Shown here: positions 12,176 through 43,835 of the stretch, in pieces
How the letters are laid out: each line of letters opens with the position of its first letter
How positions within the stretch are numbered: the first letter of the stretch is position 1
Source of the DNA: Armatimonadota bacterium
GTDB lineage: Bacteria > Armatimonadota > UBA5829 > DTLH01
NCBI GenBank assembly: GCA_039679675.1
Contig: JBDKUN010000059.1
Location: forward strand, 127,608-191,607
Reading direction: 5' to 3'
Length of the DNA: 64,000 nucleotides
Made by a program: the position numbers and the translations under genes
Notes under the pieces: generated by a model
What the model was told of the DNA's origin: nothing
What the model saw: the letters and a program-made list of their open reading frames with translations, nothing else
Databases searched by the model: none

Positions 12176-12250
12176 GATGCTTTCTTAAGAAGCATCATCT
12201 GTTAGAGAAAAGGCCGTTCGGGATAAGTCCCGAGCGGCCTTTTCCGGTAT
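12176..12250 (+). terminator. Tandem hairpins downstream of the giant gene (likely intrinsic terminator)
   Basis: Perfect palindrome GATGCTTTCTTAAGAAGCATC at 12176-12196. A second hairpin aaaGGCCGTTCGGGataagtCCCGAGCGGCCtttt at 12209-12244 is followed by a short T tract. Confidence 0.45.
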
Positions 12251-12296
12251 GCTTGGGGTTTTTACTGGCTATTTGCCTGGTTAGGGGTTGAACCTT

Positions 12297-24202: not shown

Positions 24203-25186
24203 CTATTCGTCTTTTGTATTAGCGAGAGCGCGTATTTCACCGCAGGTTACGGCGGCTACACCGACTTTTCTTACTGCAGCGCCGCCTGCCAGGTTGCCGA
24301 TCTTTGCCGCGGCCACCGGTGATGCTCCTGCCGCAAGGGCAAGACTGATTGCGCTGATTACAGTGTCCCCCGCGCCGGTGACATCATATACTTCTATAGG
24401 GACTGCAGGAAGCGTTGCGTCGAAGTCTTTGCTGAATATAGTAAGTCCAACAGAGCCGCGGGTTACTACCAGGCAATCAAGCGAAAGTTCCGATAACATG
24501 CTCCGCCCTGAGGCCTTGATAATCTCTTCGTCCTTAAATTTCAACCCGGCAACGGTTTCCGCCTCAGACTGGTTGAGTGCAACCAGCCTTGCACCCTGGA
24601 ACCCGCGAATATTGACCGGTTTTGCGTTTGCAGTGCATATCTTCCCCATTCCACTTGCAAGCGCGACAACTCTTGAGGCAACTTCCGGCTTCAGCACGCC
24701 TTTGTTATAATCAGAGAGCACCAGAACATCACAGTCTTTCAGTTTTTCGCGAATATTTTCCAGTATTTCCTCGATAACGGCTTCATCTACGGGATCCTGT
24801 GTCTCTCTATCGACCCTTACAACCTGCTGCCTGTGAGAAACCCATATCCGAGTCTTGCGCGTGGTCACGCGTGACTGGTCAACCACCAACCCGCTTGTGT
24901 CAACACCTGCATTAGAGAGTTTCTTCGCCAGCTCTTCTCCATACGGATCGTTACCGACCACGCCGACTACTGCCACGCTTCCGCCAAGTGCTCTGATGTT
25001 ATTTGCAACATTTGCAGCACCGCCGGGAAGCACTTCAGAGTCGCCATTTGCGTCTACCACGAGCACTGGCGCTTCAGGTGACACGCGGCTGGTTGTCCCC
25101 CAGATGTGCTCATCCACCATCAAATCACCGACGACAAGAGCCCTCAACTGGCCAAATCGTTCGAGAATGTGAGACAAGCTATCCAA
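24203..25186 (-). CDS. hldA: D-glycero-beta-D-manno-heptose-7-phosphate kinase (RfaE domain I / HldA-type PfkB kinase)
   Basis: ALVVGDLMVDEHIWGTTSRVSPEAPVLVV and the C-terminal DVTGAGDT motif. Only the kinase domain is present (327 aa). It is the last gene of the LPS cluster. Confidence 0.7.
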   Translation of the reverse strand: MDSLSHILERFGQLRALVVGDLMVDEHIWGTTSRVSPEAPVLVVDANGDSEVLPGGAANVANNIRALGGSVAVVGVVGNDPYGEELAKKLSNAGVDTSGLVVDQSRVTTRKTRIWVSHRQQVVRVDRETQDPVDEAVIEEILENIREKLKDCDVLVLSDYNKGVLKPEVASRVVALASGMGKICTANAKPVNIRGFQGARLVALNQSEAETVAGLKFKDEEIIKASGRSMLSELSLDCLVVTRGSVGLTIFSKDFDATLPAVPIEVYDVTGAGDTVISAISLALAAGASPVAAAKIGNLAGGAAVRKVGVAAVTCGEIRALANTKDE

Positions 25187-25190
25187 AGAC

Positions 25191-26147
25191 CTAACCCTCC
25201 TGTGACTCTATTACCGCAGCCGCGATTAGCGGCAGCATGATCTCATGATGCCCCACCAGCGATACCGACCTTCCTCCAAGCGCGCGTACCCGCCTAACAA
25301 TCTGTTCTTCTGATCGGTATTGGCGTATAAAGTCTAGGTTTACCGCAAATACTTTATCCATATTGCACCCGATGTTCGTTGCCATTGCAAATGACTTCAA
25401 TGCTACTTCGGGAAGTATTACGGCGGAGCCTACATTAAGGAGCACCCCACCCAACTGCATTAAATCTTCAATTTCGGCTGCGAATATCCTGAAGTCACGT
25501 AGCGAACAATCGCCTATGGCTGAACCATCGGCTCCCGGATGCATATGGACTATGTCCGTACCTATTCCGACATGCACCGTCACCGGAATTTCTGCTCTAC
25601 TTGCCGCAACAAGCAGACTTGAGCCTATACCCGGCGCATTTGACTTTATAAGCCTTTCGCCAAGAGATTCACCAAATCCCCGTTTCGATTCCAGACCGGC
25701 TACAGCCGCAGAGTTCACAAACTGAGCGGTCTCCATGCCCATGCCGAACTTGCCTTCCTTCAGGCCGGCCACTACATCCTCTGATGTACGGCCGTAGAGC
25801 GCCATTTCCGTGTCATGTATCGCGCCTGCGCCGTTCATGGCAAGCCCAGTGATGATCCCTCTGGCAATAAGGTCTGCTATAACCGGAGACAGCCCGCATT
25901 TGATGACATGAGCTCCGATTGAAAGGATAACCGGGCGCTTCTCGTGGGCCGCATCCGAGATGGCTGTTACTGCTGCTTTAATATCCCTGCCTGCCAGAAT
26001 ATCAGGAAAAGATGAAATAAGGTCGGTTATCTTACCGCCCGCTCGCCATGCAGACGCCGCACTTCCAATCTCGACCTTTCTATGCTGTTTTCCGACCTCA
26101 TGAGCCTTTATCCGGCTGCAATCAAATTCTCTAAACTTCGATGACAT
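25191..26147 (-). CDS. Deoxyhypusine synthase-like (DHS-like NAD-binding fold) protein of unknown role
   Basis: GRDIKAAVTAISDAAHEK...LSIGAHVIKCGLSPVIADLIARGIITGLAMNGAGAIHD aligns by eye with human DHPS GRAVQQVNAMIEKK...[38 protein letters not shown], including the shared IKC, and IPVTVHVGIGTDIVHMHP aligns with [21 protein letters not shown]. The assignment is by memory only. Confidence 0.4.
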   Translation of the reverse strand: MSSKFREFDCSRIKAHEVGKQHRKVEIGSAASAWRAGGKITDLISSFPDILAGRDIKAAVTAISDAAHEKRPVILSIGAHVIKCGLSPVIADLIARGIITGLAMNGAGAIHDTEMALYGRTSEDVVAGLKEGKFGMGMETAQFVNSAAVAGLESKRGFGESLGERLIKSNAPGIGSSLLVAASRAEIPVTVHVGIGTDIVHMHPGADGSAIGDCSLRDFRIFAAEIEDLMQLGGVLLNVGSAVILPEVALKSFAMATNIGCNMDKVFAVNLDFIRQYRSEEQIVRRVRALGGRSVSLVGHHEIMLPLIAAAVIESQEG

Positions 26148-26169: not shown

Positions 26170-27132
26170 TCAGCTTTTCTGCCAACTACCGAACAACTTT
26201 ACATACAACCAACTTTCGCGCTTTGGCCTGCCCAATATATACCAGAGAGCAACCAACCCATTTACAACTACCTTTCGGCGGTAATGCTCAGCAAGACCGA
26301 GTGTCACTACAACACCCAACGCATTCAACAGGGCCTGTATCAGCGCATTAGTAAACTGACAGCACCCTACCATCAGCTCAGGGACGATACCGAAATGCTT
26401 ACGCATGTAATAACAACGGCCCCGATTTCGTTCAATATAGGATGCTATACGTTTACACCTTACCGAAACCCCAATAAAATGTATGATCTTCGCTTCAGGT
26501 ACATATTCCATCTGCCAACCGGCATCAGCGATCATCTTGGAGAGGTCCGGGTCTTCGCAATAGAAGAAATATGACTCGTCAAAACCGCCAGCCTCTTTAA
26601 ATGCTGCCTGTCTGACCATAATAGCTGCTGCGCAAAAATATGCAATTCCTGCAAGCTGCTCTTTCCGCTCCACCATACTGGCAATTTTATGTCTGACACT
26701 CTTCCTGGCGCTCGAAAAAAGCACCGTTTTGGGAGTCATCAGCAGTGCCACAACTTCCTGATCCTTGTCATCAGCGTCCACAATCCGAGGCGAAGCTATA
26801 CCTGCTTTTGGGTTAGATTCCAGAGCTGATGCAAGACGTTCAACTGCGTTTGGACATACCAGGGTATCGCTGTTTAGAATGAACAGAAACTCACCCTGTG
26901 CCTCTTTTGCGCCAAGATTATTCGCCCGCCCAAACCCAAGATTTTTACTGCACTTTATTACCTTGACCGATGGAAACCGCTCACAAATAGCCTCAGCAGA
27001 CCCATCGGATGATGCATTGTCTACAACGATTATCTCGTAAGGCCTTGGGGGAACCGTCTTCTCAAGAGATGCTATGCAATCAATTACATGCTGTTTTGTA
27101 TTATGATTGACTATGATAACGCTAATATCCAA
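26170..27132 (-). CDS. Glycosyltransferase family 2 (GT-A fold)
   Basis: MDISVIIVNHNTKQHV...EIIVVDNASSDGS...ILNSDTL is the canonical GT2 N-terminal DxD-type signature. Confidence 0.75.
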   Translation of the reverse strand: MDISVIIVNHNTKQHVIDCIASLEKTVPPRPYEIIVVDNASSDGSAEAICERFPSVKVIKCSKNLGFGRANNLGAKEAQGEFLFILNSDTLVCPNAVERLASALESNPKAGIASPRIVDADDKDQEVVALLMTPKTVLFSSARKSVRHKIASMVERKEQLAGIAYFCAAAIMVRQAAFKEAGGFDESYFFYCEDPDLSKMIADAGWQMEYVPEAKIIHFIGVSVRCKRIASYIERNRGRCYYMRKHFGIVPELMVGCCQFTNALIQALLNALGVVVTLGLAEHYRRKVVVNGLVALWYILGRPKRESWLYVKLFGSWQKS

Positions 27133-27149: not shown

Positions 27150-27920
27150 CTACTGTCTATTCAATTTTTCTTTGCAGTTGTTGCTTTGTAATTCCCACAT
27201 AATGGAGTAATGCACCAACCTGAAAAAAACGGGCATTGCTGAAAATACCAACCCCGGCACTCCGTGCATAAACCCCCGCCACAGGATGTAACGCCTGAAA
27301 AAGAGGTTCGGAAGCTCTGCAAAGTGACGGAATCCTACACGTTTTCCCTTAGCGAAATCGTCTTCTGCGCAGGCTCTTGCATACCGAAGGTTCTTCTCAT
27401 ACCACTCTTTAAGCTCTGTTATATTATAATGTTCAAGATACCCCTTGACCCAGCCGCATTTGCCACCGTAAACAAGCTTTGCATGAGTCGAACGGTCGAT
27501 AAACTTCACTCTATCCCTGCGGAATAGCCTTATCTCAGGCTTGGGGTGCATAACCCCGTATTCAGCCGGTTTATCTCTGTAATAATTTCTTCTGAGCATC
27601 TTGTAAACATCATACTCAGGCTCAGTTTTCAGCAGAGACTGTATGTTCTTCGCAAGCTCAGGAGATACAGCCTCGTCTGCATCTATAAAGACCGTCCAGC
27701 GGTTCGAACACTTGTCTGCAGCAAGCTGCCTCTGCCTGTTGGAACCCGGCCACTCGTTATAGAAAAACTTATCTGTGTATTCCCGGCATATATCTTCGGT
27801 TTTGTCAGTGCTGCCGGAGTCGACAATAACTATCTCATCCGCCCATTTGACCGATTCCAGGCACTCACGTATGCAATTCTCTTCATTCTTCGTAATGATG
27901 ATAACTGAAAGCTTTTCTAT
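27150..27920 (-). CDS. Glycosyltransferase family 2 (LPS-core WaaE/KdtX-like), apparently initiating at a non-canonical ATA codon
   Basis: The ATG ORF (27150..27599) is only the C-terminal half. Extending the same frame upstream gives a stop-free EKLSVIIITKNEENCIRECLESVKWADEIVIVDSGSTDKTEDI..., the conserved GT2 N-terminus. There is no in-frame ATG, GTG or TTG before it. An ATA at 27920-27918 sits 7 nt after a GGAGG and overlaps the upstream gene's TAG (ATAG), and it gives a 256-aa product typical of this family. Confidence 0.55.
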   Translation of the reverse strand: MEKLSVIIITKNEENCIRECLESVKWADEIVIVDSGSTDKTEDICREYTDKFFYNEWPGSNRQRQLAADKCSNRWTVFIDADEAVSPELAKNIQSLLKTEPEYDVYKMLRRNYYRDKPAEYGVMHPKPEIRLFRRDRVKFIDRSTHAKLVYGGKCGWVKGYLEHYNITELKEWYEKNLRYARACAEDDFAKGKRVGFRHFAELPNLFFRRYILWRGFMHGVPGLVFSAMPVFFRLVHYSIMWELQSNNCKEKLNRQ

Positions 27921-29011
27921 TTCTCTTTCCTCCGCTGGGAGATGAGTTCAGATGCAGCATCGAATGCACGATCAACCGTAATAGCCTGAAGACATTTAAA
28001 ATCTCCGCATGTAGGCTTATGTCCGCACGGAGCACATGAAAGTTGCTCCCAGAGCACTTTCGACTTATCGCAGTACGGCCCGGTTATCCTCGGATCAGTC
28101 GGCCCAAAGATCGCAACCACCGGAGTTCCCACTGAAACCGCGAGATGCATCGGCCCTGTATCATTACTGACTACCGCATCGCATTTTTCGAGGACCGCCG
28201 CAAGCTGACCGATCTTCGTGCGCCCAGCAATATCAATCGGCGGGTTCTTTGCCTTCCGCATCACTTCATCTACTGTTTCGCGCTCGGATGCCGACCCTAC
28301 TATTAGCACATTTAGGCCATCTGAGGCAAGCCTGTCCGCCAATGCTGCATACCGGTCAGGGAACCACTGCTTCGCAGCAACACTCGATCCGGGACTGATA
28401 GCTACAGTCGGTCTGTCTTTCGTTATTCCGACGGATTCGAGCAGGTCTGCTGCAAATTCACGTTCCTCTTTCGATGTAAACATCTCCATTTTGGGGTTTC
28501 GGACATCCGCGCCGATCGTCCGCACAAGATCGAGATACCAATCCACCCTGTGGCAGCCGGGCCTGCGTGAAACTGGATGCGTCAGAAACCTTGTCAGCCC
28601 AGGCTCATCGAACCCGACTCTTGTGGTCGCACCGGCCCACTTTCCGAGCGCGGCCATTCTGACGGAACTGAAGGTAAAGAGCACGCTCGTATCGCACCCG
28701 CCGGCGCGCACCTTGGGAATCATCTTGATGATCGAAAGGGGCCCTCTTTTTCGCGTCAGAACCTCATCAACGCATGGATTATGATTGAGAAGGTCCTCCA
28801 TACCGGAAAGGACGACATTGCGAATGCGCGCATCAGGAAAATTTTCTTTCAGTGCCCTTATCGCCGGTGTAGTGAAGAGGATATCACCAATGTGGTTTAG
28901 GTTGAGCAGAAGCAGGCAGCCATGATTGTTATGCAAATCAGGCAACCTCTTTTCGTGTATTTGGTTGAAGCGCGTTCTGCAAAACATCGCGATATACGCG
29001 CAGATTGCCAT
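27917..29011 (-). CDS. waaF: ADP-heptose:LPS heptosyltransferase (GT9; WaaF/RfaF-like)
   Basis: LLLNLNHIGDILFTTPAIRAL (the GT9 N-terminal R-x-SS-x-GD region) and C-terminal VSNDTGPMHLAVSVGTPVVAIFGPT. The true start is probably a later ATG, GTG or TTG than 29011. Confidence 0.7.
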   Translation of the reverse strand: MAICAYIAMFCRTRFNQIHEKRLPDLHNNHGCLLLLNLNHIGDILFTTPAIRALKENFPDARIRNVVLSGMEDLLNHNPCVDEVLTRKRGPLSIIKMIPKVRAGGCDTSVLFTFSSVRMAALGKWAGATTRVGFDEPGLTRFLTHPVSRRPGCHRVDWYLDLVRTIGADVRNPKMEMFTSKEEREFAADLLESVGITKDRPTVAISPGSSVAAKQWFPDRYAALADRLASDGLNVLIVGSASERETVDEVMRKAKNPPIDIAGRTKIGQLAAVLEKCDAVVSNDTGPMHLAVSVGTPVVAIFGPTDPRITGPYCDKSKVLWEQLSCAPCGHKPTCGDFKCLQAITVDRAFDAASELISQRRKEK

Positions 29012-30077
29012 CGACCATCTGATCTACGCTGAATTCAGACTGTACTAACCGGCGGCCGTTTTCACCGAACCGTTTTCCCAGCTCTCTATCACGGAATAAC
29101 TTAAGCACTGATTGCTTAATCGCCTCTGTGTCTTCGGGCTGGATCAAAAACCCGGTTTCCCCATCTCTGACTATCTCAGGAATACCGCCGACAGCCGATG
29201 CAACTATCGGAACACCGGCATACGCAGCCTGCAGCAGCGATACACCAAGCCCTTCACGAAGAGCCGGATGCACTACTACATCCAGATTAGTAAGAATCCT
29301 GTTCATATCTTCTCTGAATCCCGCAAACTGCACTTCTTCCGATATTCCCAGTTCCTGCACCCGGCTTTCAAGTTGAGCTCTGAGCGGGCCTTTACCAAAT
29401 ATCAGAAACCGAGCATCGGGAAACTCCTTCAATATATCCGGTATGACTGAAAAGAAATACCTGTGGCCCTTGCGCTCAATAAGTTGAGCTATTACACCTG
29501 CTACTGGAGCATCCTGAGAAATACCGAATTCTGACTCAAACCACTTTCTATCCCTATCGCACTGAGGTTTTGCCGTTATGATAGCACTGTGGACTAGCTC
29601 AAGCCGTTCTTCATCGATACCACAGTCACTGAGCACTTTTTTTATCCCACCGGAGATAGCTATGATCTTGTCCGGGATCACATTATATTTGAGACGCCCA
29701 AGAGCTCCCAGGCTGATACGGTCATCGACTCGGCGGGACAATACCACTGCGGGGACTCGCGCCATCCTTGCAGCTACCCCGCCCAAAATCTCTGCGCCTC
29801 TCCGGCTGTGGAGATGCACTACATCAGGCTTTACCTTCCGCACCTCACTATAGACTCTCAACACAAGCGAGGGATCACAGTCGCACCATACACTTACGGG
29901 ATGAACGGGTATGCCCGACCGGCGAGCCTCAGTCTCGATAGCGCTTCCCTTCGCGCATACAAGATCGACACCATGCCCTCTCTCGGCCAAGCCGCGCATA
30001 AGATAGACGACCTGCAGAGCTCCGCCGTACATATGCCTGCCGAACTCGATATGCACTGTATTTATACGGCCTTTCAA
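28938..30077 (-). CDS. Glycosyltransferase family 4 (GT-B; WaaG/RfaG-like)
   Basis: GGALQVVYLMRGLAERGHGVDLV... and C-terminal EGLGVSLLQAAYAGVPIVASAVGGIPEIV (the E-x7-E GT4 motif). Confidence 0.7.
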   Translation of the reverse strand: MKGRINTVHIEFGRHMYGGALQVVYLMRGLAERGHGVDLVCAKGSAIETEARRSGIPVHPVSVWCDCDPSLVLRVYSEVRKVKPDVVHLHSRRGAEILGGVAARMARVPAVVLSRRVDDRISLGALGRLKYNVIPDKIIAISGGIKKVLSDCGIDEERLELVHSAIITAKPQCDRDRKWFESEFGISQDAPVAGVIAQLIERKGHRYFFSVIPDILKEFPDARFLIFGKGPLRAQLESRVQELGISEEVQFAGFREDMNRILTNLDVVVHPALREGLGVSLLQAAYAGVPIVASAVGGIPEIVRDGETGFLIQPEDTEAIKQSVLKLFRDRELGKRFGENGRRLVQSEFSVDQMVDGNLRVYRDVLQNALQPNTRKEVA

Positions 30078-31132
30078 CTCTCTGCTCCCTCAAAACTGTG
30101 CGGAAATATGGCTGACTGCGCCGCCGATAAAACTTCCTCCGGCGTTACATCCGTTATGCACTCAAAACGTTCGCATGTCGGCTTTTTAAAGCATGGTACA
30201 CAGTCCATATCTTTTCTGACAACTGCGAAATTATCCCGATTAATATGGTTCTGCCAGGCGGTTGTCGGACCGAATATTCCTATAGATTGCTTTCCGATTG
30301 CAACGCCGGTGTGAAGAAGCCCTGTGTCGACCGCAACTACCAGAGAGCAACTGTCCTGAACTGCCACAGCCTGTTTAAGCGTTGTGCAGCCTGCTATATT
30401 AATCGCAGGGGCCTCTATTTTTGCCAAGATCCTATCGATCATCTCGCGGTCTTTTTTCACGCCAAGGAATATACTCCTCATGCCCATCTCATTCCACAAA
30501 AGATCCGCAAGTTTCGACCATCCTTCTTCAGACCAATGCTTGTTAGCCCTTGTAGTCGCAGGACAAAGGGCTGCCGCCTTTTCTCCTACGTTCAATCCAG
30601 CTTCTATTAATATCTTCGATGCTGACTCTCGTTCCTCATCACTGATAACCACCCGCATATCCCCGTCCTGGTCATCAGGAATGATCCCAAGCGGTTCAAG
30701 AAGCCTCATATAGCAGGCCATACCGTGACGGCAACGGCGTTTCGGAGCAGTTTTTTCGCAAGCTACGGTCTCATTGTAGGCTACTCCGCTGAACTCTCTG
30801 CTGTCAGCATAACCTATCCGGCGTTTTGCTCCCGATGCCGCAGTTACGAGGGCGCTCCGCGCTAATCCCTGGAAATCAAGAGCCACATCAAACTGGCGTT
30901 TTCTCAACACTTGCGTGAGTTTCAGAAAAGATGCCGGGCCGCTCCTGTCAAAGTTAATCGTCTCATCCACATCCGGATTGCCCTCAAGGATTCCAGCCGA
31001 TTTAGACTCGACTACCCAGGTAATCCTGGCATCCGGTATACGCCGTCTGAGCATGCGTACAGCAGCCGTAGTCATAACTACGTCCCCTATCGCACTCAGT
31101 CTGACGATCAATATGGATAAGTTGTTTGACAT
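30074..31132 (-). CDS. waaC: ADP-heptose:LPS heptosyltransferase (GT9; WaaC/RfaC-like)
   Basis: MSNNLSILIVRLSAIGDVVMTTAAVRMLR and C-terminal VAVDTGLLHTGVAIGKQSIGIFGPT. ATGA overlap with the downstream GT4 gene. Confidence 0.7.
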   Translation of the reverse strand: MSNNLSILIVRLSAIGDVVMTTAAVRMLRRRIPDARITWVVESKSAGILEGNPDVDETINFDRSGPASFLKLTQVLRKRQFDVALDFQGLARSALVTAASGAKRRIGYADSREFSGVAYNETVACEKTAPKRRCRHGMACYMRLLEPLGIIPDDQDGDMRVVISDEERESASKILIEAGLNVGEKAAALCPATTRANKHWSEEGWSKLADLLWNEMGMRSIFLGVKKDREMIDRILAKIEAPAINIAGCTTLKQAVAVQDSCSLVVAVDTGLLHTGVAIGKQSIGIFGPTTAWQNHINRDNFAVVRKDMDCVPCFKKPTCERFECITDVTPEEVLSAAQSAIFPHSFEGAES

Positions 31133-31153: not shown

Positions 31154-31894
31154 TTAATCGAACTCTTTCTGCTCCACTCCCGTATTAACAGTGATATCCT
31201 TTGTTTCTGTTGTCGCTGCCAGTTTTCCTTCACTGTTGTATACCTCAGCCTTGCATGGAGTCCAAATCCCGTTTACCTTGATATGGTTGAAGTATAGCGT
31301 CTTCACCTTGAGCGAGTCATCTCCGAACATCCTGTCGCGCCTCAACAATTTATAATCCTTACCGTCAATCCAGATCAATTGATACTTGCTGCTCTTGGCT
31401 GTCTTCAGCTTCAGAACATAAGCAAGTGAACCGTCTTCGTTCTTTTCAGTCCGGACCAGGCTGATATTGTAAATATCCCAGATGACATCAGATACTACGC
31501 CCACATCCAGCGGGCTCATTCGTTTTTCCTGCTCTTTCGATATATCTTCACGTTTTTTGTATCTCATAGACGGGATTCTAATGTGCCGGACATTACCTGC
31601 GGTGATGAATTCAACCTTCATCATACCCAGCACACCGTTTATCTTGAGGCTATCGGGGGCCTTAAACACTACTTTGGCGCTTTTAAACTCATAAAGCTCC
31701 GCGAAGACTTTGCCCATTTTCTGAAGCTCTCGCTGGTTGGAATTGACAACGACCAGATTGCAGCTAAGATCTTTCAGTCCACCTGCAGCCTTATGGACAT
31801 GAGTCTTGAGACTTTCCAGCTCATCTGCTGCGAAAAGCGTGGATGATATTGTTATCAAAGCTATAATTACTGCGAATCCGAATAACTTTTTCAA
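31154..31894 (-). CDS. Secreted LolA-like / outer-membrane lipoprotein-sorting-like protein (hypothetical)
   Basis: Signal peptide MKKLFGFAVIIALITISSTLFAA. The mature part has an alternating beta-strand pattern and is embedded in the LPS cluster. The family is not confidently assigned. Confidence 0.3.
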   Translation of the reverse strand: MKKLFGFAVIIALITISSTLFAADELESLKTHVHKAAGGLKDLSCNLVVVNSNQRELQKMGKVFAELYEFKSAKVVFKAPDSLKINGVLGMMKVEFITAGNVRHIRIPSMRYKKREDISKEQEKRMSPLDVGVVSDVIWDIYNISLVRTEKNEDGSLAYVLKLKTAKSSKYQLIWIDGKDYKLLRRDRMFGDDSLKVKTLYFNHIKVNGIWTPCKAEVYNSEGKLAATTETKDITVNTGVEQKEFD

Positions 31895-32820
31895 CTACTT
31901 GTCTCCATCGATTCCTTGACTGCTTCCGATGCCCGTTTCCATCTGTCGTGGAGCCACAGCCACTGAGACGGGTCTTTTCTGATCTCATCTTCTATTGCCG
32001 TGGTTATTGCCTGCGTCAGCATGTGAATATCTTCTTTTTCATTACCTGTATGAGTTACAGTAATAGGCGGGTATATTCTTGCCCTAAACCGGCCTTCTTC
32101 ATCCCTGCGCGCAAACCCACAGACAACTGGAGCGCCTGTTCTAAGTGCAAATACGGCAGGGCCTGTTGCAGTAGCACAGGGTTTGCCGAAAAAGTCTACA
32201 AATATACCGGTGAACGTGTTCTGGTCCGGCAGTATTCCCAAAACCTCATTTCTCTTAAGCGACCTGACAGCCGGAAGTGCTGAGTTGTCCCTGTCCAGCA
32301 CGTGATATCCGGCTGTCTCACGCATTTTGTTGGCAATGCCGGTCATCGCCGGGTCGTCGCTATTGCGGGCTATCACGTTCACTTTATAGCCGGATAGAAC
32401 CAGTTTTCGGGCAAATATCTCCCAGTTGCCCAGATGAGCCGTTATAAGAATAACGCCATGTCCCTTGGCAAGAGCTTCATCCATATATTCTTTTCCATCA
32501 AGATCAATCCAGGCATCAAGTTCCTCAGGCGGCAGGTGCAGAATATGCAAGAACTCCAGCATGCCTTTTGCAAAGTGCCTGCAGGTGTTTCTGGCAGTTG
32601 CGCGGACCTTCTCACTGCTCCATTCTGGATATGCCGCTGTGAGATTTTTTATAGCTACCCGCCTGTATCTTCGGGACATAAGAAACATAAAGTCTCCAAG
32701 TCTCCTGCCCCACCGGCCTATATTCGATTTGTTCAACCTGCTCGAAAAGCGAAGGAAAACCCATGCAGCTATCCTTCCGCCCAGAAATTCCAGTCTTTTT
32801 CTCAGCTTTCGGCGCGTCAT
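31891..32820 (-). CDS. lpxL: Lipid A biosynthesis late acyltransferase (LpxL/HtrB/MsbB family)
   Basis: Length, the N-terminal basic/TM region and the ITAHLGNWE (H-x4-E-type) acyltransferase motif. Confidence 0.7.
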   Translation of the reverse strand: MTRRKLRKRLEFLGGRIAAWVFLRFSSRLNKSNIGRWGRRLGDFMFLMSRRYRRVAIKNLTAAYPEWSSEKVRATARNTCRHFAKGMLEFLHILHLPPEELDAWIDLDGKEYMDEALAKGHGVILITAHLGNWEIFARKLVLSGYKVNVIARNSDDPAMTGIANKMRETAGYHVLDRDNSALPAVRSLKRNEVLGILPDQNTFTGIFVDFFGKPCATATGPAVFALRTGAPVVCGFARRDEEGRFRARIYPPITVTHTGNEKEDIHMLTQAITTAIEDEIRKDPSQWLWLHDRWKRASEAVKESMETSS

Positions 32821-35210
32821 AAACCAATCACCCTATCCAAAAGCCGATCCATGTTATCTATCATAAGTTCAATGTCCAACACATACATGTTCTCTAGACG
32901 CAGTTTTACGGCATCTTTTGCCGTTGTGACTATAGCTTGTGCACCACTTGACTCAAATGCCCGCTGAACAGCATTCACCCTCTCTTGAGAATACGAACAG
33001 TGGTCTCCAAAGCTTATTCTTTCCTTTATATCCGCGCCGCACTCTCTGAGTAGTATATCGAATGATTCAGGGCTTGCAATGCCGGATACCGCCACTATCG
33101 CCATTCCCTGAAGCCTAGATGTATCAAGTCGCTCGCCCGTTTCACAGTCGATCAAAGCGCTCGGAACTTTACCTGCGGTAAATATTTCCGCATCAGGCGC
33201 ACGATAAGCCAACTCAGCCTTAAGACCGGCTGCGCGGTCGGAATCAACCAGTTCTTTACCAGTGATCATGACCGCGTCGGCTCGTTTAATCCCGCTTACG
33301 GGTTCCCGAAGATCCCCAGCAGGCAATAACATGTTCATTCCATACGGTTTGTCCGCTCGCACAAGTATTATTTCGACATCTCGGTGAAGCTGCCAATACT
33401 GCATTCCGTCATCGAGCACTATCACATCCGGGCTGAACCTTTCCATCAGAATCAGCCCCATTTTGCGCCTGTCTTTTCCGATTGCTACAGGCACTCCGGG
33501 GAGCGCATTAGCAAGAAGCGCCGGTTCATCCCCGCATTCATGTGCATCCAGATACCGTGTAATGCCGTCCGACACTACAGCACCAACCTTACACAGACTT
33601 CCACCATGCCCCCGGCTGAGTATTGCGGGTTTCAGTCCACGGCGCAATAAACCTTCACATATTGACCGTACCGCAGGGGATTTCCCTGTTCCTCCGAACG
33701 TCAGGTTCCCAACGCTCACGACACGGCAGGGGAGTTTATATCGCAGCCTTAGTCCAGTTTTATAGGGCAATAAATACACCCACAGTCCAAGCCCATAGAG
33801 CCAGGAAAAGGGCAAAAGCAGGATACTGGGGGATAGCAAGTGTTCAGATACTCCGCGATCCTTCTGTTCTCTGTTCCCTGCTCCCTGTTTACTCGCCTCT
33901 ACTATCTTCTCCGCATATCTCCTTGACGCGCCCCTGTTTGCATTCATCATCTCAAGAGCATATTTTCGTATATCATCCAGTGCAGGACCGTGTGTTTGCA
34001 GATTTGTTATGTGTTTCGCAAGCTCTTCTTTATCCTTGACTTCAAAACCAACTCCAGCATCCACAGCCTGTCTGACCAGATCGCGCGCTTTAAAAGTGTA
34101 AGGACCGAAAAGGACAGGTTTTCCCTGCGCTATCGGCTGGAGGATATTGTGGCCACCTTTCGGGATCAGGCTTCCCCCGACGAACGCCGCGTAACCAACC
34201 GCATAGACAGTGGCAAGCTCACCGAAGGTATCAAGGATGATAATATCCTCTTTTCCTGATATGTTCTCAGACTGGCTTCTTCTGCCACAGGACAGACCGC
34301 GAGCACTCGCCATTTCGACTATTTCATCGGCGCGTTCTATCTGCCTTGGTGCCAATATCATTCTGAGATCGGGAACAGACTGCCGCGCTAGCTTAAATGC
34401 ATCCAAAACCGGCTCATCTTCGCCTGGATTAATGCTTCCTGCTACAAACACACTCTGGCCTTTTATTAATCCGAAGCGCTTTCTTATTTCATCGATCTCC
34501 GGTTTAGTAAGCGGGTCGGACTCCTGATCAAACTTACAGTTACCGATGACCTCTACACGCTTTTCTGAAGCTCCAAGCCCGATTATCCGCTCGGCATCGG
34601 TATCTGTCTGCATGAGCATCGTCTGAACGTTGGAAAGAGCCCACTTATAGAACGGCTTTATCTTTCTACCATTCTTTACGGTGCGGTCGGAGACAATCCC
34701 ATTTACTATCAGCGTTCGGACACCGATTCTTCTTGCAAATTCGAGGAAATTCGGCCAAATCTCGCTTTCCATGCTTACAAAGACATCAGGATCGACTACA
34801 TCCAGCGACTTTATCACGGAAAATGCAGTATCCAGCGGAAAATATATGATATGATCCGCCTCAGGAAGAGATTTCCGGGCCATTTCCTGGCCTGTAATGG
34901 TCGTGGTGGAAACTATAATTTCCGCATCAGGGCAAATAGCTTTTATCTCGCGGAGTATCGGTGCGCTTGCGACTACTTCGCCGACAGATACAGCTTGAAT
35001 CCAGATACGCGGCCGTGTTTTTGATCTTCTGTGGACACTTTCGGGGAAAATACCCAGCTGCTGCCGCCATGCATTGCGGGATTTCCCTGACCCCAAGACT
35101 CTCCAGATGTAATATACGGCTAGAACCGGACTGAGCAGAAGGAGCAGGAGATTATAAACAATCGGCATCCTGCTTTCCCTTTCCAAACAGTTCCTCAGCG
35201 GCTCTTTCAT
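32817..35210 (-). CDS. waaA-lpxK: Fusion protein: Kdo transferase (WaaA/KdtA, N-terminal about 440 aa) + tetraacyldisaccharide 4'-kinase (LpxK, C-terminal about 350 aa)
   Basis: The N-terminal half has IWIQAVSVGEVVASAPILREI...IIVSTTTITGQEMA and ...GGHNILQPIAQGKPVLFGP (KdtA). The C-terminal half has VVSVGNLTFGGTGKSPAVRSI...ILSRGHGG (LpxK P-loop) and ...FGDHCSYSQERV...IVTTAKDAVKL (LpxK C-terminus). It is one continuous 797-aa ORF. The likely start is the MPIVYNLLL Met near 35168. Confidence 0.8.
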   Translation of the reverse strand: MKEPLRNCLERESRMPIVYNLLLLLLSPVLAVYYIWRVLGSGKSRNAWRQQLGIFPESVHRRSKTRPRIWIQAVSVGEVVASAPILREIKAICPDAEIIVSTTTITGQEMARKSLPEADHIIYFPLDTAFSVIKSLDVVDPDVFVSMESEIWPNFLEFARRIGVRTLIVNGIVSDRTVKNGRKIKPFYKWALSNVQTMLMQTDTDAERIIGLGASEKRVEVIGNCKFDQESDPLTKPEIDEIRKRFGLIKGQSVFVAGSINPGEDEPVLDAFKLARQSVPDLRMILAPRQIERADEIVEMASARGLSCGRRSQSENISGKEDIIILDTFGELATVYAVGYAAFVGGSLIPKGGHNILQPIAQGKPVLFGPYTFKARDLVRQAVDAGVGFEVKDKEELAKHITNLQTHGPALDDIRKYALEMMNANRGASRRYAEKIVEASKQGAGNREQKDRGVSEHLLSPSILLLPFSWLYGLGLWVYLLPYKTGLRLRYKLPCRVVSVGNLTFGGTGKSPAVRSICEGLLRRGLKPAILSRGHGGSLCKVGAVVSDGITRYLDAHECGDEPALLANALPGVPVAIGKDRRKMGLILMERFSPDVIVLDDGMQYWQLHRDVEIILVRADKPYGMNMLLPAGDLREPVSGIKRADAVMITGKELVDSDRAAGLKAELAYRAPDAEIFTAGKVPSALIDCETGERLDTSRLQGMAIVAVSGIASPESFDILLRECGADIKERISFGDHCSYSQERVNAVQRAFESSGAQAIVTTAKDAVKLRLENMYVLDIELMIDNMDRLLDRVIGL

Positions 35211-35847
35211 CCGCCGCGCTTATAGCTTTTCCTATCATTTCAGACCACTTAGTCCGGTCTTCATCCGTCTCACATTTCCCGACATGTATCGGATCACCGA
35301 ATACGATACATGCCTTTGAAAACGGCTTTGGAACCTCGTGTTTATCCCATGAGTTGAACTGCCACACTCGTGAGCAAGCAATACCTACTGGCAAAATGCT
35401 GCAACCTGACCGTTCAGCCATCAGGACTATTCCAGGCTGCACCACCTTTGCCGGACCACGTGGCCCGTCCGGTGTAATAGTTATAATTCCGTCGTCTTTT
35501 ATGCGCTTCACTGATTCGAGCAGCGCTTTTGCGCCGTGTGCACGGCTGGAACCATGGACTATCCTATATCCGCGAGATTGAAGAAGCCTTGACTGCAGCT
35601 CACCGTCTTTTGACACCGAAACAATCGCCCAAAACCCCATATGACGGCAAAAGTATATCGGGAGTATAGTCGTTCCATGCCATGTAGCTATTACGCCACC
35701 ATGTCCTGAACTGCGCATATCTTCAAGCCGGTCTATTCCTACCGGCTTGATTCTCACAGTGCAGGCGATACCGGTGGAAACAAGCCACAAAAGCCGCCAG
35801 ATTATCTCAGTTCTGAGTTTTTTCCAGATGTCCTTCACTGGAAGCAA
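35152..35847 (-). CDS. DUF374 domain protein (lipid A/Kdo-associated lysophospholipid acyltransferase-like)
   Basis: Sits between msbA and waaA, where DUF374 genes typically occur. Contains ATWHGT and ITPDGPRGP motifs. Confidence 0.5.
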   Translation of the reverse strand: MLPVKDIWKKLRTEIIWRLLWLVSTGIACTVRIKPVGIDRLEDMRSSGHGGVIATWHGTTILPIYFCRHMGFWAIVSVSKDGELQSRLLQSRGYRIVHGSSRAHGAKALLESVKRIKDDGIITITPDGPRGPAKVVQPGIVLMAERSGCSILPVGIACSRVWQFNSWDKHEVPKPFSKACIVFGDPIHVGKCETDEDRTKWSEMIGKAISAADERAAEELFGKGKQDADCL

Positions 35848-37576
35848 CTACCTCTTCTTTTTTTAAATCGAACTGTGTGTGATACAACCTAGCAAAAGCG
35901 CCTTCATGCTGCATCAGTTCATCAAAACTTCCCTGCTCGACTATTCTGCCGTCTCCAAGGACGATAATCAGATCAGCCTGCTTTATGGTAGACAACCTGT
36001 GTGCTATTACAAGCGTCGTTCTCCCTACCATGAGCTTATCCAGCGCTTCCTGCACCAGTCGCTCGGAAGTGGCATCGAGAGAACTCGTGGCCTCATCGAG
36101 GATCAATATGCGTGGGTCTTTCAGAATCGCTCTTGCGATGGCAATCCGTTGTCTTTCACCACCCGAAAGCCTTGCGCCCCGTTCGCCGATCACCGTCTTA
36201 TAGCCGTCTTCGAACTGGCTGACAAACATATGAGCATTTGCAGCGCGAGCAGCCTGTTCAACTTCCTCGTCCGTAGCATCCGGCCTTCCGTAAGCGATGT
36301 TGTCCCTTATTGTCCCGCTGAACAGTATCGTTTCTTGCGGAACTATACCTATGTGCTTCCTAAGCGACTCCAAAGTCACACAACGAATATCATGGTCATC
36401 GACCAATACCGCACCGCCTGAAACCTCGTAGAACCTTGGTACTAGATTCGCAACAGTAGACTTTCCGGCGCCGCTCGGCCCTACAACGGCGACCGCTTTG
36501 CCCGGTTCCATCGTGAAAGAAATGTTTTTCAGAACCTGTTCGCCGGTCTGATAAGAGAATGAGACATTTTTGAACGCGACGTGGCCGGTTATTTCGCCAA
36601 GGTCAACAGCATCAGGAGAATCAGCAATGTCCGGTTCTTCATCAAGAACCTCGAAAATGCGATCAATACCGGCCATTGTCTGATGGTATGTAACATTCAA
36701 TCGCCCGATCTTCTTTGCGGAACTGGCGACATAAAACGCTATGCCTCCGAACTCGACTATTGAACCGTATGGAATCTGGTGCGACGTTACCAGATAGCCA
36801 CCGAGCAGCATTATCGCTACTACAACGATTGTGCCAAAGAACTCTGTTATCGGAGTAACTAATGCGCTTCTCCGAGCGCTCTTTAGGGCAGCCTTCAGGC
36901 TGGCCAAGTTCTGCTCAAAAAATCGCTGTATTTCATTTTTCTCCATGCCAAACGATTTGACTACTCTGATCCCAACAATTGTCTCCTCGAGGACAGCAAT
37001 CACATCGGCCAGCTTCAATTGAAGGTTTATCGTCAGTTTCCGCATTTTGCGTGTAATTCTACTGATCAAAACGCCCATACCCGGCACAAAAAGTATAAAT
37101 ATACCTGCCAGGACCCAATTGATCATAAACATCCTGGCAATTCCACCGATAACAGTCAGAGGAGCATTGATGACATCCGTAATAGCACCGGAACCATTTT
37201 GTATGAGGCCTACATCATTGGTCATCCGCGACATCAGGTGCCCAACCTTATTCCGCTCGAAAAAGCTCAAGGTCATTGAATGCAGGTGAGCATATATGCG
37301 GTTTCTGATATCTGTAGCAATACGATTTGTTGCAGATGCAATTAGGTAGGATTGCCCATAATTCGCCACACCCTTCGGCAACTGTACAATGACAAACGCC
37401 AAGGCAATCATTTTGATCATGTTCCAGTTGTCCAGCTTGACTGCATTGAGGAATTTGCCGGCCAGAAACGGCGTCAGTAGATCACCACAAGTAACAACTC
37501 CGCCTAATATTGATCCTAAGATAAACTGCCACTTATACGCTAATATGTATTGGACGAGTTTTTTACGATTATCCAA
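35807..37576 (-). CDS. msbA: Lipid A export ABC transporter, permease/ATPase fusion
   Basis: Six-TM N-terminal half. C-terminal NBD with GPSGAGKST (Walker A), LSGGERQRIAIARAIL (signature) and ILILDEATSSLD (Walker B). Located within the lpx/waa cluster. Confidence 0.8.
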   Translation of the reverse strand: MDNRKKLVQYILAYKWQFILGSILGGVVTCGDLLTPFLAGKFLNAVKLDNWNMIKMIALAFVIVQLPKGVANYGQSYLIASATNRIATDIRNRIYAHLHSMTLSFFERNKVGHLMSRMTNDVGLIQNGSGAITDVINAPLTVIGGIARMFMINWVLAGIFILFVPGMGVLISRITRKMRKLTINLQLKLADVIAVLEETIVGIRVVKSFGMEKNEIQRFFEQNLASLKAALKSARRSALVTPITEFFGTIVVVAIMLLGGYLVTSHQIPYGSIVEFGGIAFYVASSAKKIGRLNVTYHQTMAGIDRIFEVLDEEPDIADSPDAVDLGEITGHVAFKNVSFSYQTGEQVLKNISFTMEPGKAVAVVGPSGAGKSTVANLVPRFYEVSGGAVLVDDHDIRCVTLESLRKHIGIVPQETILFSGTIRDNIAYGRPDATDEEVEQAARAANAHMFVSQFEDGYKTVIGERGARLSGGERQRIAIARAILKDPRILILDEATSSLDATSERLVQEALDKLMVGRTTLVIAHRLSTIKQADLIIVLGDGRIVEQGSFDELMQHEGAFARLYHTQFDLKKEEVVASSEGHLEKTQN

Positions 37577-37735
37577 AGTTGTTTCCTAACTGCTTAAAGA
37601 GTTTCGGGTAATGATTGTAACAATCCTACGGACACATAACCAGTCAATGATAATGCTGCATCTGTTGTTTTTCGCTTACACCCGAAACTCTCCCGGAAGG
37701 AGTTTTGGCTGAAACGATATCTACTACTCGCTACA

Positions 37736-38248
37736 TCAGCTACCAAAACTCTGTAGCACCATTTTTATGGCGAAAGCAATCACTATGACTACTGTTCCCA
37801 TAATCGTTTTGACTTCTTTGTTCAGCTTGGCCTGCTTGAATGAGAACTTGTGGGTATCTGAAGTGATCCTGGCAGATAGACTGGGTATTATTCTCGGCAC
37901 TCTTTTGCAGTACACTTTGAAATCATCCCCAAACTGCTCGATCAGGAACCGTTCTTCCCATATCACAGCTGCGCCATGGAATGCAAAGAAAAGCGGTATC
38001 ACGATAGCCCAGACCAGCCATCCGCCGGTCATTGTAGAGTAGCCGCACGTTATGAAAAAGCTGCCGATGTAAAGCGGATTTCTGACATGGGCGAAAGGGC
38101 CTGAAACCGTCAGCACTTCTGATTTAACAAGATGTCCTGCTGACCATACTCTGATTGCCTCGCCAAATACAACCAAAACAAACCCTGCAAGTAAAGTCGA
38201 AAGCACGGGTTTTCCGAATACGAACATTATTATGGGCGCAACTAACAA
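37736..38248 (-). CDS. Isoprenylcysteine carboxyl methyltransferase (ICMT)/phospholipid methyltransferase-family membrane protein
   Basis: The SGPFAHVRNPLYIGSFF motif (ICMT/PEMT family) plus multiple TM helices. The ORF-track N-terminal about 80 aa overlap lpxB in another frame and are discarded. The likely start is TTG near 38248 or ATG 38227, just after the lpxB stop. Confidence 0.5.
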   Translation of the reverse strand: MLVAPIIMFVFGKPVLSTLLAGFVLVVFGEAIRVWSAGHLVKSEVLTVSGPFAHVRNPLYIGSFFITCGYSTMTGGWLVWAIVIPLFFAFHGAAVIWEERFLIEQFGDDFKVYCKRVPRIIPSLSARITSDTHKFSFKQAKLNKEVKTIMGTVVIVIAFAIKMVLQSFGS

Positions 38249-38280
38249 GAAGAAAGTCCTGCGTCTGAAAAGAAAGAAGC

Positions 38281-39504
38281 TCAGGCTCTTGGCTGCAGGC
38301 CCGCCGCCGCCAATACCACTTTCGCGGCTCTGCCTGTCCCTCCAGGTGCGCCAAGTACCTCCCGCGCGGACTGGAGTGCCACCCTCATTCTCTGAAGCTC
38401 CACCGGTTCCTTCAGATACTTTACAGCAAGCTCCGCTATCTTCTCGGGTGACGCCTGGTCCCCTAGTAATTCCGGACATATTTCCCTCCCAGCAACAATG
38501 TTGGGCATCCCAATAAATTGCTCAAGTATACTTTTTCGAAAAAGATATTCCAATTTCATAAGTGAGGAACCACGGTAAACGATGATCATCGGGGTTGTCA
38601 GTATCATCGCCTCAAGAGTCGCGGTCCCCGAACAACTGATTAAAAGGTCTGAATTGGCCATCACATCGTATGTTCGGCCTCGTGAAACATAAATATTCTC
38701 TGTAATTAAATCTGCACCGGCTTCGAAATCATTCAGTATCTGATTTATCTTTCGAGTGGCTTTATCGGACCCGGCAGCGATTATAAAGCAGCACTTGTAA
38801 GGAACTTCATCTTCAATAATCGACGCGGCTTCCAGCATTGCGGGCAGTATGTTGTCGATTTCATGCGTTCTACTCCCAGGCAATATCCCAACTATCCGCG
38901 CACCTTTGGGTATCTCATATTTTGGATCAAGAACATCGATCAACTGATCTACATCCATCGAAGGCACTACCTGGTCCAAAAGTGGATGTCCTAAAAAAAG
39001 AGCATCCGCACCCACTTTGGTCAGTATTTCAGCAGACCACGGGAACGGTGTAATAATCCTGTCCGATGCTGCCAGAAGACTGGAATTTTTACCGGGCCGT
39101 TTTCGCCATGAACCGGGCGGAAAATAGTAAACTGTAGGAATCCCCTGTTCTCTTACGAACCTGCCGAGTTTTACGTTAAAAGCGCCGAAATCTATCGGCA
39201 CGAATACATCAGGTTGCCGTTTGCAGAACTCTTTCTTTAGTCTTGCCAGTTCGCATAGGAGCCTTGGGACCATTTTCAGCGATTCTACTATCCCTATTGC
39301 GCCAACACTCGAAAAGTCCGAGACTAGTTCGACACCAGCGGCACGCATCTTTGGTCCGCCTGCTCCCCAGATAGTAATATCCGGGCAAAGCTTCCGAAGT
39401 TCAACGGCTAAAGCACTGCCGCTCGCATCTCCGGAGGCTTCACCGGCTACTATTGCTATCGATGGTGTAGTGACCTTAGCCACGGTGCTCTGTTTGCCTG
39501 CCAT
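38281..39504 (-). CDS. lpxB: Lipid-A-disaccharide synthase
   Basis: IAIVAGEASGDASGSALAVELRK (N-terminal GT19 motif) and overall length. Confidence 0.85.
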   Translation of the reverse strand: MAGKQSTVAKVTTPSIAIVAGEASGDASGSALAVELRKLCPDITIWGAGGPKMRAAGVELVSDFSSVGAIGIVESLKMVPRLLCELARLKKEFCKRQPDVFVPIDFGAFNVKLGRFVREQGIPTVYYFPPGSWRKRPGKNSSLLAASDRIITPFPWSAEILTKVGADALFLGHPLLDQVVPSMDVDQLIDVLDPKYEIPKGARIVGILPGSRTHEIDNILPAMLEAASIIEDEVPYKCCFIIAAGSDKATRKINQILNDFEAGADLITENIYVSRGRTYDVMANSDLLISCSGTATLEAMILTTPMIIVYRGSSLMKLEYLFRKSILEQFIGMPNIVAGREICPELLGDQASPEKIAELAVKYLKEPVELQRMRVALQSAREVLGAPGGTGRAAKVVLAAAGLQPRA

Positions 39505-40300
39505 TATGGCCGCACTTTATTTGCTTGACGAAGTTAAGGAGATACTGCAACTCTTCGCAGGGCTCCACTTCGGCCTCAATCCTCTCCACCGCTTGGGTTA
39601 TATTGAGCGATGATCTGTAAAGCAGCTTGTAGCTCTGCCTTAACGACGCACGCGATCTTGGTGCTACGCCGTTCCTACGCAGTCCGATCACATTGAGATC
39701 GTAGACTTTGATAGGCCTTCCATCCGCCAGCATAAACGGCGGAACATCCTGCACTACTTTTGACATTCCACCGACCATGGCAAGTTTCCCTATGCGCACA
39801 TTCTGATGTACGCCAGCCATACCGCTCAAGATCACCTTATCTTCGACCTGGACATGACCGCTGATTCCTGCCATATTCGCCATTGTGATGTTGTTGGCAA
39901 GTTTGCAGTTATGAGCAACATGACAGTATGCCATCAGCATATTGTTGTTACCTATAATCGTGCTGGTTCCTTCTCCGCTTGCGCGGTGGATCGTGCAGAA
40001 TTCCCTTATGATATTTTCATCGCCGATTGTTAGAAAACTTTTTTCTCCGTGGAACTTATAGTCCTGAGGTGCGCCACCAAGCACTGCACTTACACCGATA
40101 TGGCAATTTCGGCCAATCGTCGTATTGCACTCTATCACGGCATGGTGCTCAATCCTGGTCCCATCGCCTATTTTCACGTCAGGACCGATGACGCAGTATG
40201 ATCCAATTACGACACCCTCACCGATCTCCGCTGATGGATCGATTATCGCTGTTGGATGTATCCCGGTCGCAACTTCCGGATTCATCATTCCATTCCTCAC
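39476..40300 (-). CDS. lpxA: Acyl-ACP--UDP-N-acetylglucosamine O-acyltransferase
   Basis: IHPTAIIDPSAEIGEGVVIGSYCVIG hexapeptide repeats and the LpxA C-terminal helical domain. Confidence 0.85.
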   Translation of the reverse strand: MRNGMMNPEVATGIHPTAIIDPSAEIGEGVVIGSYCVIGPDVKIGDGTRIEHHAVIECNTTIGRNCHIGVSAVLGGAPQDYKFHGEKSFLTIGDENIIREFCTIHRASGEGTSTIIGNNNMLMAYCHVAHNCKLANNITMANMAGISGHVQVEDKVILSGMAGVHQNVRIGKLAMVGGMSKVVQDVPPFMLADGRPIKVYDLNVIGLRRNGVAPRSRASLRQSYKLLYRSSLNITQAVERIEAEVEPCEELQYLLNFVKQIKCGHNGRQTEHRG

Positions 40301-43819: not shown

Positions 43820-43835
43820 GGGTAACCTGTCCAGT

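Follow-up and report, generated by a model that had tools for sequence, protein, structure and literature searches.

A GSU2086-family protein with a predicted deoxyhypusine-synthase-like fold, linked to the heptose-nucleotide pathway in Armatimonadota and other bacterial phyla

The ADP-heptose pathway, which serves the inner core of lipopolysaccharide (LPS), is treated as a closed pathway of four or five enzymes: GmhA, HldA/HldE, GmhB, HldC and HldD. HldD works via transient oxidation with a tightly bound nicotinamide cofactor, and deoxyhypusine synthase (DHS) catalyses a redox-neutral reaction with bound NAD as the hydride carrier. Here, we describe an open reading frame (ORF) at positions 25191-26147 of a 64,000-nucleotide stretch of DNA from an Armatimonadota bacterium (the window; GenBank assembly GCA_039679675.1, contig JBDKUN010000059.1), together with the family to which its product, the target, belongs. 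This family, catalogued as NF052581 under the name GSU2086 family protein, is linked specifically to the heptose-nucleotide pathway (GmhA, HldA/HldE, GmhB, HldC) and not to glycosyltransfer in general. Because its genes adjoin heptose genes across many phyla, are fused to those of every core enzyme and stand within the heptose operon of the archetype, the family is very probably a dedicated component of that pathway.

The archetype, GSU2086 of Geobacter sulfurreducens, is located between hldE (GSU2085) and gmhA (GSU2087), as given in PMC5585712. Annotations in the supplement to that paper and in PMC3495685 assign GSU2084 to gmhB, GSU2083 to rmlA and GSU2088 to a family-2 glycosyltransferase (GT2), and the operon order is gmhB(GSU2084)-hldE-GSU2086-gmhA-GT2. 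The surroundings of GSU2086 thus encode the full canonical set of four ADP-D,D-heptose enzymes. Transposon insertions in hldE, GSU2086 and gmhA gave electrode-growth scores of -3.1, -3.2 and -3.7, respectively (PMC5585712), and the portion of the supplementary tables of that paper that was covered holds no hldD, rfaD or '6-epimerase' annotation. The target has the same size, the same invariant motifs and the same kind of neighbourhood as the archetype, and nothing sets the two apart.

Family, predicted fold and nearest relatives

The ORF is confirmed to encode a real, highly conserved protein: its translation contains no internal stops, the product is identical to the protein ABFD64_12255 of a metagenome-assembled Armatimonadota bacterium at NCBI, and among 8000 candidates that were scored, 7871 proved homologous at E<=1e-3. 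NF052581 matched target residues 7-310 with 350.9 bits (cut-off 250, E 7e-105) over profile positions 1-300 of 301. By this match the target is a full-length, ordinary member of a catalogued family, and the sequence itself is not new; the family is already named, and its function is unstudied. A family profile search of 1.84 billion cluster representatives returned 3337 matches at E<=1e-3 and 950 at E<=1e-30, while a scan of species-representative genomes gave at least 595 confirmed relatives. Those listed belong to Armatimonadota, Desulfobacterota, Nitrospirota, Methylomirabilota, KSB1, Acidobacteriota, Synergistota, Omnitrophota and Calditrichota.

The family is about 50% identical across phyla, and in a set of 228 members, 32-90% identical to the target, conservation reaches 97% or more at some 30 residues. 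The near-invariant residues, all present in the target, include H80, K83, H111, D112, E114, T121, S122, E123, H192, D218, S241, E247, K251, D272, Y277, R278, R286, H301 and E302, and the predicted model places nearly all of them in loops that follow the C-terminal ends of its strands. Such a concentration of near-invariant charged residues and histidines in one crevice is typical of catalysis. It argues against a non-catalytic regulator, scaffold or sensor that would bind ADP-heptose, NAD or a heptose phosphate in an old NAD pocket, a reading that we regard as quite improbable and that also sits poorly with the retention of the family in the four-gene modules of a second clade (below), where a scaffold seems unnecessary.

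The AlphaFold2 model of the target (pLDDT 84.9, pTM 0.84, from an alignment of 48 sequences) predicts an alpha/beta fold of the DHS type, and its top matches in the Protein Data Bank (PDB) by Foldseek were DHS chains (E 5.7e-9, TM ~0.6, 12-17% identity). The DHS-like fold proposed in the initial annotation is thereby borne out, while the SIS fold named there as a conceivable contrary result found no support in the fold search. Searches of Pfam and NCBIfam with the target gave no match to the short-chain dehydrogenase/reductase (SDR) family, to TIGR02197 or to HAD models.

Sequence comparison with DHS gives a fainter signal. The Pfam family PF01916, the search suggested earlier, does match the target at E 2e-4, but only over residues 52-118 and with 21.1 bits, below the cut-off of 27. 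Three NCBIfam DHS models match the N-terminal third (E 4e-5 to 4e-3), again below their cut-offs (TIGR00321, 19.4 bits versus 304; NF002630, 22.9 versus 364). The human DHS sequence, verified as identical to PDB 1rlz, seeded a profile of vertebrate and plant DHS, and in local mode hhalign aligned query residues 68-113 with DHS 94-139 and 160-189 with DHS 208-231. These are the two blocks first aligned by eye; they are colinear but weak (E 0.16 and 0.006, respectively). The 'IKC' that had been read as shared does not survive the comparison, since target I82-K83-C84 aligns with DHS 108-110 and not with DHS I140-K141-C142. With the single human sequence, the family profile gave only a spurious 30-column match, and the C-terminal half of the target yielded no hhalign alignment to the DHS profile in global or local mode.

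Within these limits, the N-terminal loops GAH, NGAG and HD of the target align, weakly, with DHS. Among the human NAD-binding residues compared (S105/N106, T131, E137, D238, G283/G284, D313, D342), plausible counterparts of D238 and D342 are D198 and E302, by colinearity and by an alignment to ornithine cyclodeaminase (OCD) only. A counterpart of the catalytic human Lys329, which the initial annotation had proposed to look for, was not found, because K83 and K251 are the only invariant lysines and neither lies in the C-terminal third; by colinearity, and without superposition at the level of residues, the Lys329 region corresponds to the invariant R278 and R286.

Judged by the predicted model, the target resembles DHS in fold only, with a likeness beyond chance, and it is not a deoxyhypusine synthase. 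It is 12-19% identical to DHS (PF01916, EC 2.5.1.46; 1dhs/1rlz, 7cmc, 8put), falls below all DHS hidden Markov model (HMM) cut-offs and has its own invariant set of His, Asp, Glu, Lys and Arg. Bacteria lack eIF5A. The target is found in the context of heptose genes, without an eIF5A, elongation factor P (EF-P) or polyamine context; no polyamine or EF-P genes were seen in the ~157 loci analysed below. A true aminobutyl transferase of the deoxyhypusine or homospermidine synthase type, acting on polyamines or a translation factor, would account for the fold, the sub-threshold HMM matches and the IMG/JGI names, and is extremely improbable when set against those scores, the missing lysine and the heptose genes at these loci. 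The names in question, 'deoxyhypusine synthase', are carried by the family proteins P0013, P0031, P0037, P0050, P0104 and P0109 and are, on sequence comparison, misannotations that stem from sub-threshold similarity to DHS. The further remark that no role is established for DHS-like proteins in bacteria no longer holds for true homologues of DHS, given that Anabaena SpeY, which is DHS-like, is a homospermidine synthase (PMC10385936).

The nearest characterised relatives by sequence are the LOR/SDH-type domains of ArgZ (6juy), AgrE (6lrf) and 3c2q. An hhalign comparison of the family with rebuilt OCD domains gave a probability of 95.8% and an E-value of 7e-9 over residues 66-309 and 188 columns. 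Judged by such alignments, the target is closer to the ArgZ-C/LOR-SDH OCD domain than to DHS, and its family branches within the DHS / LOR-SDH clade, which is part of the DHS-like dinucleotide-binding superfamily. Catalogued models for these relatives score below cut-off on the target (PF21570, ArgZ-like_C_2nd, 20.2 bits versus 27; TIGR00300, 15.9 versus 410.8), and PF04455 (Saccharop_dh_N), the N-terminal LOR/SDH domain, does not match at all, the target being a single 318-residue domain. Target and OCD family have in common a G-x3-I-x2-G loop, an A-x-HD-x-E motif, a G-TS motif, an Asp after strand 3 and a Glu after strand 6. The target differs in lacking the N-terminal domain and the His-rich 'GH-x-HH / H-G-H-x-x-H' stretch specific to OCD, in insertions of ~45 residues relative to the OCD domain, and in its context of heptose genes where OCD has arginine/ornithine genes.

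For this comparison, two OCD domains were reassembled from frameshifted genes on their contigs. A homologue search with the profile of a 60-residue OCD fragment had returned only gene fragments of at most 104 residues, because the OCD genes are split: in two long-contig assemblies the gene is broken into two to three ORFs (L083, 3001-3679; L084, 3001-3816). These splits are probably assembly frameshift errors. TIGR00300 bears the NCBIfam name nickel-pincer nucleotide-dependent ornithine cyclodeaminase, and according to a paper of 2026 (PMC13524815) that cites Desguin 2025, this enzyme uses a nickel-pincer adenine dinucleotide. No lar-like genes (larB/C/E) were recognised among the recurrent neighbours at the loci of either clade.

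Association with heptose-pathway genes

The genomic context was examined in 82 independent genome loci of the first clade (the window, L001 and L003-L082) from at least nine phyla. At least one heptose-pathway gene was present in 54 of the 82; when only the 56 loci flanked on each side by 2 kb or more are counted, the number is 40. The co-localisation of orthologues with envelope genes anticipated in the initial annotation is thus observed. A GmhA-like gene is directly adjacent to the target homologue in 43/82 loci; in 42 loci this gene precedes the homologue on the same strand, and the two often overlap by a few bases. HldA/HldE (9/82) and HldC (21/82) are always downstream and on the same strand. 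Neighbouring HldC proteins score above the NCBIfam cut-off in Nitrospira, NC10 and Armatimonadota loci, as do HldE domain models in three loci. The adjacent SIS genes have gmhA/phosphoheptose-isomerase models as their top matches, below the equivalog cut-offs of these models. HldD was found in none of the 157 loci examined, the sole SDR cluster (c17) being the dTDP-glucose 4,6-dehydratase RmlB.

Natural fusions point to the same enzymes. Among 269 cluster representatives, 20 were long, and their domains were assigned with Pfam and NCBIfam. The GSU2086 domain is fused to HldC in seven proteins, with HldC on either side; one of these, P0187, also contains HldA and thereby a full HldE, and another, P0207, a damage-control phosphatase. 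Fusions to HldA (P0187, P0226) and to GmhA number two each. In P0241 the partner is a bona fide GmhB domain (TIGR01656, 123 bits versus a cut-off of 84) with the DRDGT nucleophile and the CxH...CxC Cys/His zinc motif. Further long proteins include tandem duplications, one fusion to an RyR domain (P0262, residues 5-75) and one with an unassigned N-terminal domain. This last domain, residues 1-204 of P0130, has no Pfam or NCBIfam match, and its 'VVCVDFDDAE' recalls small LPS/Kdo-type kinases.

Plasmids revealed a second clade. By tblastn, two more distant members were found (37-38% identity, NF052581 384-386 bits). On pDCAR1 of Solidesulfovibrio carbinolicus (L085, 10282-17887) the family gene stands between an HldC-HldA fusion of reversed order and a GmhA-like gene, followed by three radical-SAM genes of which two have B12-binding domains, all inside a glycan cluster of the NeuB/PseF nonulosonic-acid type; this arrangement hints at a modified heptose. 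On a Chloroflexota plasmid (L086, CP069395, 9089-12519) the family gene follows a HAD hydrolase gene and precedes first an HldA-like kinase gene and then a GmhA-like SIS gene; upstream of this group are deoC and the genes of a sugar ABC transporter and of two Gfo/Idh/MocA oxidoreductases. A Chloroflexota-seeded metagenome scan supplied 80 further loci, of which 73 (among L087-L166) were analysed. Of the 54 loci long enough to show it, 52-53 have the HAD hydrolase immediately upstream; the HldA-like kinase is directly downstream in 47-49 of 53, and a GmhA-like SIS gene downstream in 28; the module often follows a sugar ABC transporter and Gfo/Idh/MocA oxidoreductases, and genes for HldC or HldD were absent from these 73 loci. 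The second clade keeps a HAD-GSU2086-HldA-like-SIS module outside any LPS context. The envelope-glycan function suggested in the initial annotation is supported by context and narrows to the heptose-nucleotide pathway.

GmhA, HldA, GmhB and HldC are each found both alongside the family and in fusions with it, and the family therefore replaces none of them; we consider it likely that it supplies a fifth, distinct function. A replacement of GmhB, the heptose 1,7-bisphosphate 7-phosphatase, could be proposed, as no GmhB-type HAD-IIIA gene occurs in the 82 genome loci or the 73 loci of the second clade and the conserved site is rich in His, Asp and Glu. This proposal is largely refuted by the gmhB annotation of GSU2084 beside the archetype and by the GmhB domain fused to the family in P0241. 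The HAD hydrolase directly upstream in ~98% of second-clade loci speaks against it as well, which leaves a non-orthologous replacement of GmhB very improbable.

In Nitrospirota and NC10 loci the modules take the form gmhA-target...hldC or target-hldC, and neither HldA nor GmhB occurs within 10 kb. As GmhA and HldC are also the partners met most often, both as neighbours and in fusions, these modules could suggest a phosphoheptose mutase or phosphotransferase that moves the phosphate between O7 and O1, with a 1,7-bisphosphate intermediate or primer, and so shortcuts or assists the kinase/phosphatase pair. Four invariant basic residues and several invariant histidines would suit bisphosphate binding and phospho-His chemistry. 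We nevertheless regard a mutase as unlikely: HldA, HldE and GmhB too are among the neighbours or fusion partners of the family, the Geobacter operon has all four canonical genes, members of the second clade are flanked by both kinase and phosphatase, and the closest relatives are hydride-transfer enzymes. We know of no phosphotransferase in the DHS-like fold.

The position of the gene between or beside isomerase and kinase, in both clades and in Geobacter, would also suit a cofactor-independent helper at the heptose 7-phosphate step, for instance an anomerase that provides the beta-anomer from GmhA to a beta-specific kinase, and the overlap with gmhA suggests co-expression at a fixed ratio. 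For a mutarotase, however, ~50% identity across phyla and ~30 near-invariant polar residues would be unusual. Moreover, the best-conserved part is formed by the dinucleotide-type loops common with DHS and OCD, and the frequent fusion to HldC would be left unexplained, so that such a helper appears improbable.

The LPS gene run of the window

In the window, the target is the second-to-last gene of a ~20-kb co-directional, operon-like LPS run (Table 1). The order is skp, an unknown gene, lpxD, lpxC, fabZ, lpxA, lpxB, a PEMT-like gene, an msbA-like ABC transporter gene, DUF374, a waaA-lpxK fusion, lpxL, a TP_0789-like gene, GT9, GT4, GT9, a GT2 remnant, GT2, target and hldA. Positions 24203-44477 of the minus strand thus hold almost all of the pathway for lipid A, Kdo and the inner core, and the end of the run is marked by a strong promoter-like site of the next, cold-shock gene. 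No gmhA, gmhB, hldC or hldD was found by tblastn elsewhere in the window; the E. coli GmhA, GmhB and HldD sequences served only as BLAST leads.

Table 1. Features of the LPS gene run in the window, in order of position
Positions	Strand	Feature	Basis or size
24203..25186	-	hldA, D-glycero-beta-D-manno-heptose-7-phosphate kinase, PfkB family, TTG start	PF00294 E 1e-38
25191..26147	-	Target, GSU2086-family gene, predicted DHS/LOR-SDH-like fold	318 aa
26148..26169	-	Spacer from GT2 stop to target ATG, 22 nt, with GGAAAG resembling a ribosome-binding site	Read from sequence
26170..27132	-	Intact family-2 glycosyltransferase, directly upstream of target	PF00535 E 5e-26
27150..27599	-	149-aa ORF, apparent C-terminal remnant of a second, WaaE-like GT2	BLASTP to L001 GT2
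27917..29011	-	GT9 heptosyltransferase, consumer of ADP-heptose	PF01075 E 3e-45
28938..30077	-	GT4 glycosyltransferase	PF00534 E 2e-40
30074..31132	-	Second GT9 heptosyltransferase	PF01075 E 9e-38
31891..35210	-	lpxL and waaA-lpxK fusion (lipid A / Kdo part of run)	NCBIfam, Pfam
35152..44477	-	DUF374, msbA-like ABC transporter, PEMT-like, lpxB, lpxA, fabZ, lpxC, lpxD, unknown, skp	Pfam

The neighbouring heptose kinase recognised in the initial annotation stands: TIGR02198 is the top match of the hldA product (E 1e-95, 320 bits versus a cut-off of 345). Its start codon lies 4 nt past the target stop and a GGAGG lies within the 3' end of the target ORF, and these two features suggest that target and hldA are translationally coupled. 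One of the two GT2 genes proposed alongside is intact. The other ORF has no Pfam or NCBIfam match and corresponds by BLASTP to residues 120-241 of the 254-residue WaaE-like GT2 of the Armatimonadota locus L001 (E 8e-8); it looks like a remnant without the catalytic N-terminal half, alongside a 317-bp gap at 27600-27916.

Several further features of the run and its surroundings were observed. The 797-residue ORF at 32817-35210 (minus strand) joins WaaA (residues 17-438) to the lipid A 4'-kinase LpxK (residues 468-792), whereas waaA and lpxK are two separate genes in the related locus L001. That locus also contains a 436-residue fusion of HldC (TIGR02199, 206 bits) and the CMP-Kdo synthetase KdsB (12240-13550), which unites the nucleotide-activation steps of both inner-core sugars. 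The PEMT-like ORF (phospholipid methyltransferase family; 37736-38479, minus strand), between lpxB and the msbA-like transporter gene, is listed with a start that overlaps the lpxB ORF by ~200 nt, and its true start is probably further downstream. Downstream of the run, at 19350-23389 (minus strand), there is a cluster of a MoxR-type AAA ATPase, DUF4350 and DUF4129 that also has a 386-residue protein with a C-terminal prokaryotic RING finger (PF14446).

Candidate chemistry and its implications

HldD (GmhD/RfaD, TIGR02197) is the only known step of the LPS heptose pathway that, in the loci examined, is never adjacent or fused to the GSU2086 family. Since the characterised relatives DHS and OCD both catalyse redox-neutral reactions by means of a bound hydride carrier and the HldD step alone is never near the family, we put forward an epimerase with an HldD-like job, as a possibility that must be called somewhat doubtful. 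HldD and the target are unrelated in fold (HldD being an SDR) and in sequence, and HldD is proposed as a functional analogue only. The two would differ in substrate too, in that HldD acts on ADP-heptose and the contexts of the GSU2086 family point upstream of the adenylyltransferase.

On our best explanation, the target would be a cytoplasmic enzyme in the route from sedoheptulose 7-phosphate to the activated glycero-manno-heptose of the LPS inner core. Its substrate would probably be a phosphorylated heptose, heptose 7-phosphate or 1,7-bisphosphate, and not ADP-heptose, because the tie to isomerase, kinase and phosphatase persists without an adenylyltransferase nearby. The four invariant basic residues K83, K251, R278 and R286 may hold the phosphates, and a nicotinamide-type dinucleotide, bound in a crevice along the C-terminal edge of the beta-sheet, may serve as a transient hydride acceptor. 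The loops of dinucleotide type are the best-conserved part among the target family, DHS and OCD. A hydroxyl of the heptose would then be epimerised, most likely at C6 from D-glycero to L-glycero, the job done elsewhere by HldD, with cofactor contacts and acid/base catalysis contributed by residues such as H80, H111, D112, E114, H192, E247, D272, Y277, H301 and E302. One may speculate further that a non-SDR epimerase of the DHS/OCD fold sets C6 before adenylylation in at least nine phyla, giving ADP-L,D-heptose without HldD, that the second clade belongs to a heptose-phosphate module with no tie to LPS, and that the cofactor may even be of the nickel-pincer type, since the HDxE motif is common with the nickel-pincer ornithine cyclodeaminases; this extended version we consider rather unlikely.

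Taken as a whole, an enzyme of the heptose pathway that uses a nicotinamide-type dinucleotide and acts as an epimerase is our best explanation, held tentatively. A number of points weigh against it or limit it. The literature search found no functional study of the GSU2086 family, nor any paper that links a DHS-like protein with heptose or deals with a Geobacter heptose epimerase. Conservation of the NAD pocket rests on colinearity, as the C-terminal half cannot be aligned to DHS by sequence, and the His-rich site also suits a metal-dependent, non-redox enzyme. The absence of HldD refers to the 8-10 kb on either side of the loci and not to whole genomes. It must also be noted that each locus set carries a taxonomic bias, being made up of the 80 top-scoring matches of its scan, that the gene calls in the loci come from our own ORF heuristic, and that the transposon phenotype of GSU2086 may be polar on hldE. 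Finally, the Nitrospirota/NC10 module of gmhA, target and hldC, with no kinase nearby, fits a mutase equally. The probability left over falls to chemistry outside the readings considered here.

Antibiotic adjuvants are directed at the ADP-heptose pathway, whose intermediates also act as signals of innate immunity. A conserved extra gene would mean an altered pathway or an added step across a large part of the bacterial tree. Such a gene would also bring a third kind of chemistry to the small clade of DHS / LOR-SDH enzymes, and the present analysis corrects the recurring misannotation of these proteins as deoxyhypusine synthase. A fifth enzyme of the heptose pathway is a concrete and testable proposal, as enzymatic synthesis gives access to the substrates and Geobacter is open to genetic work.

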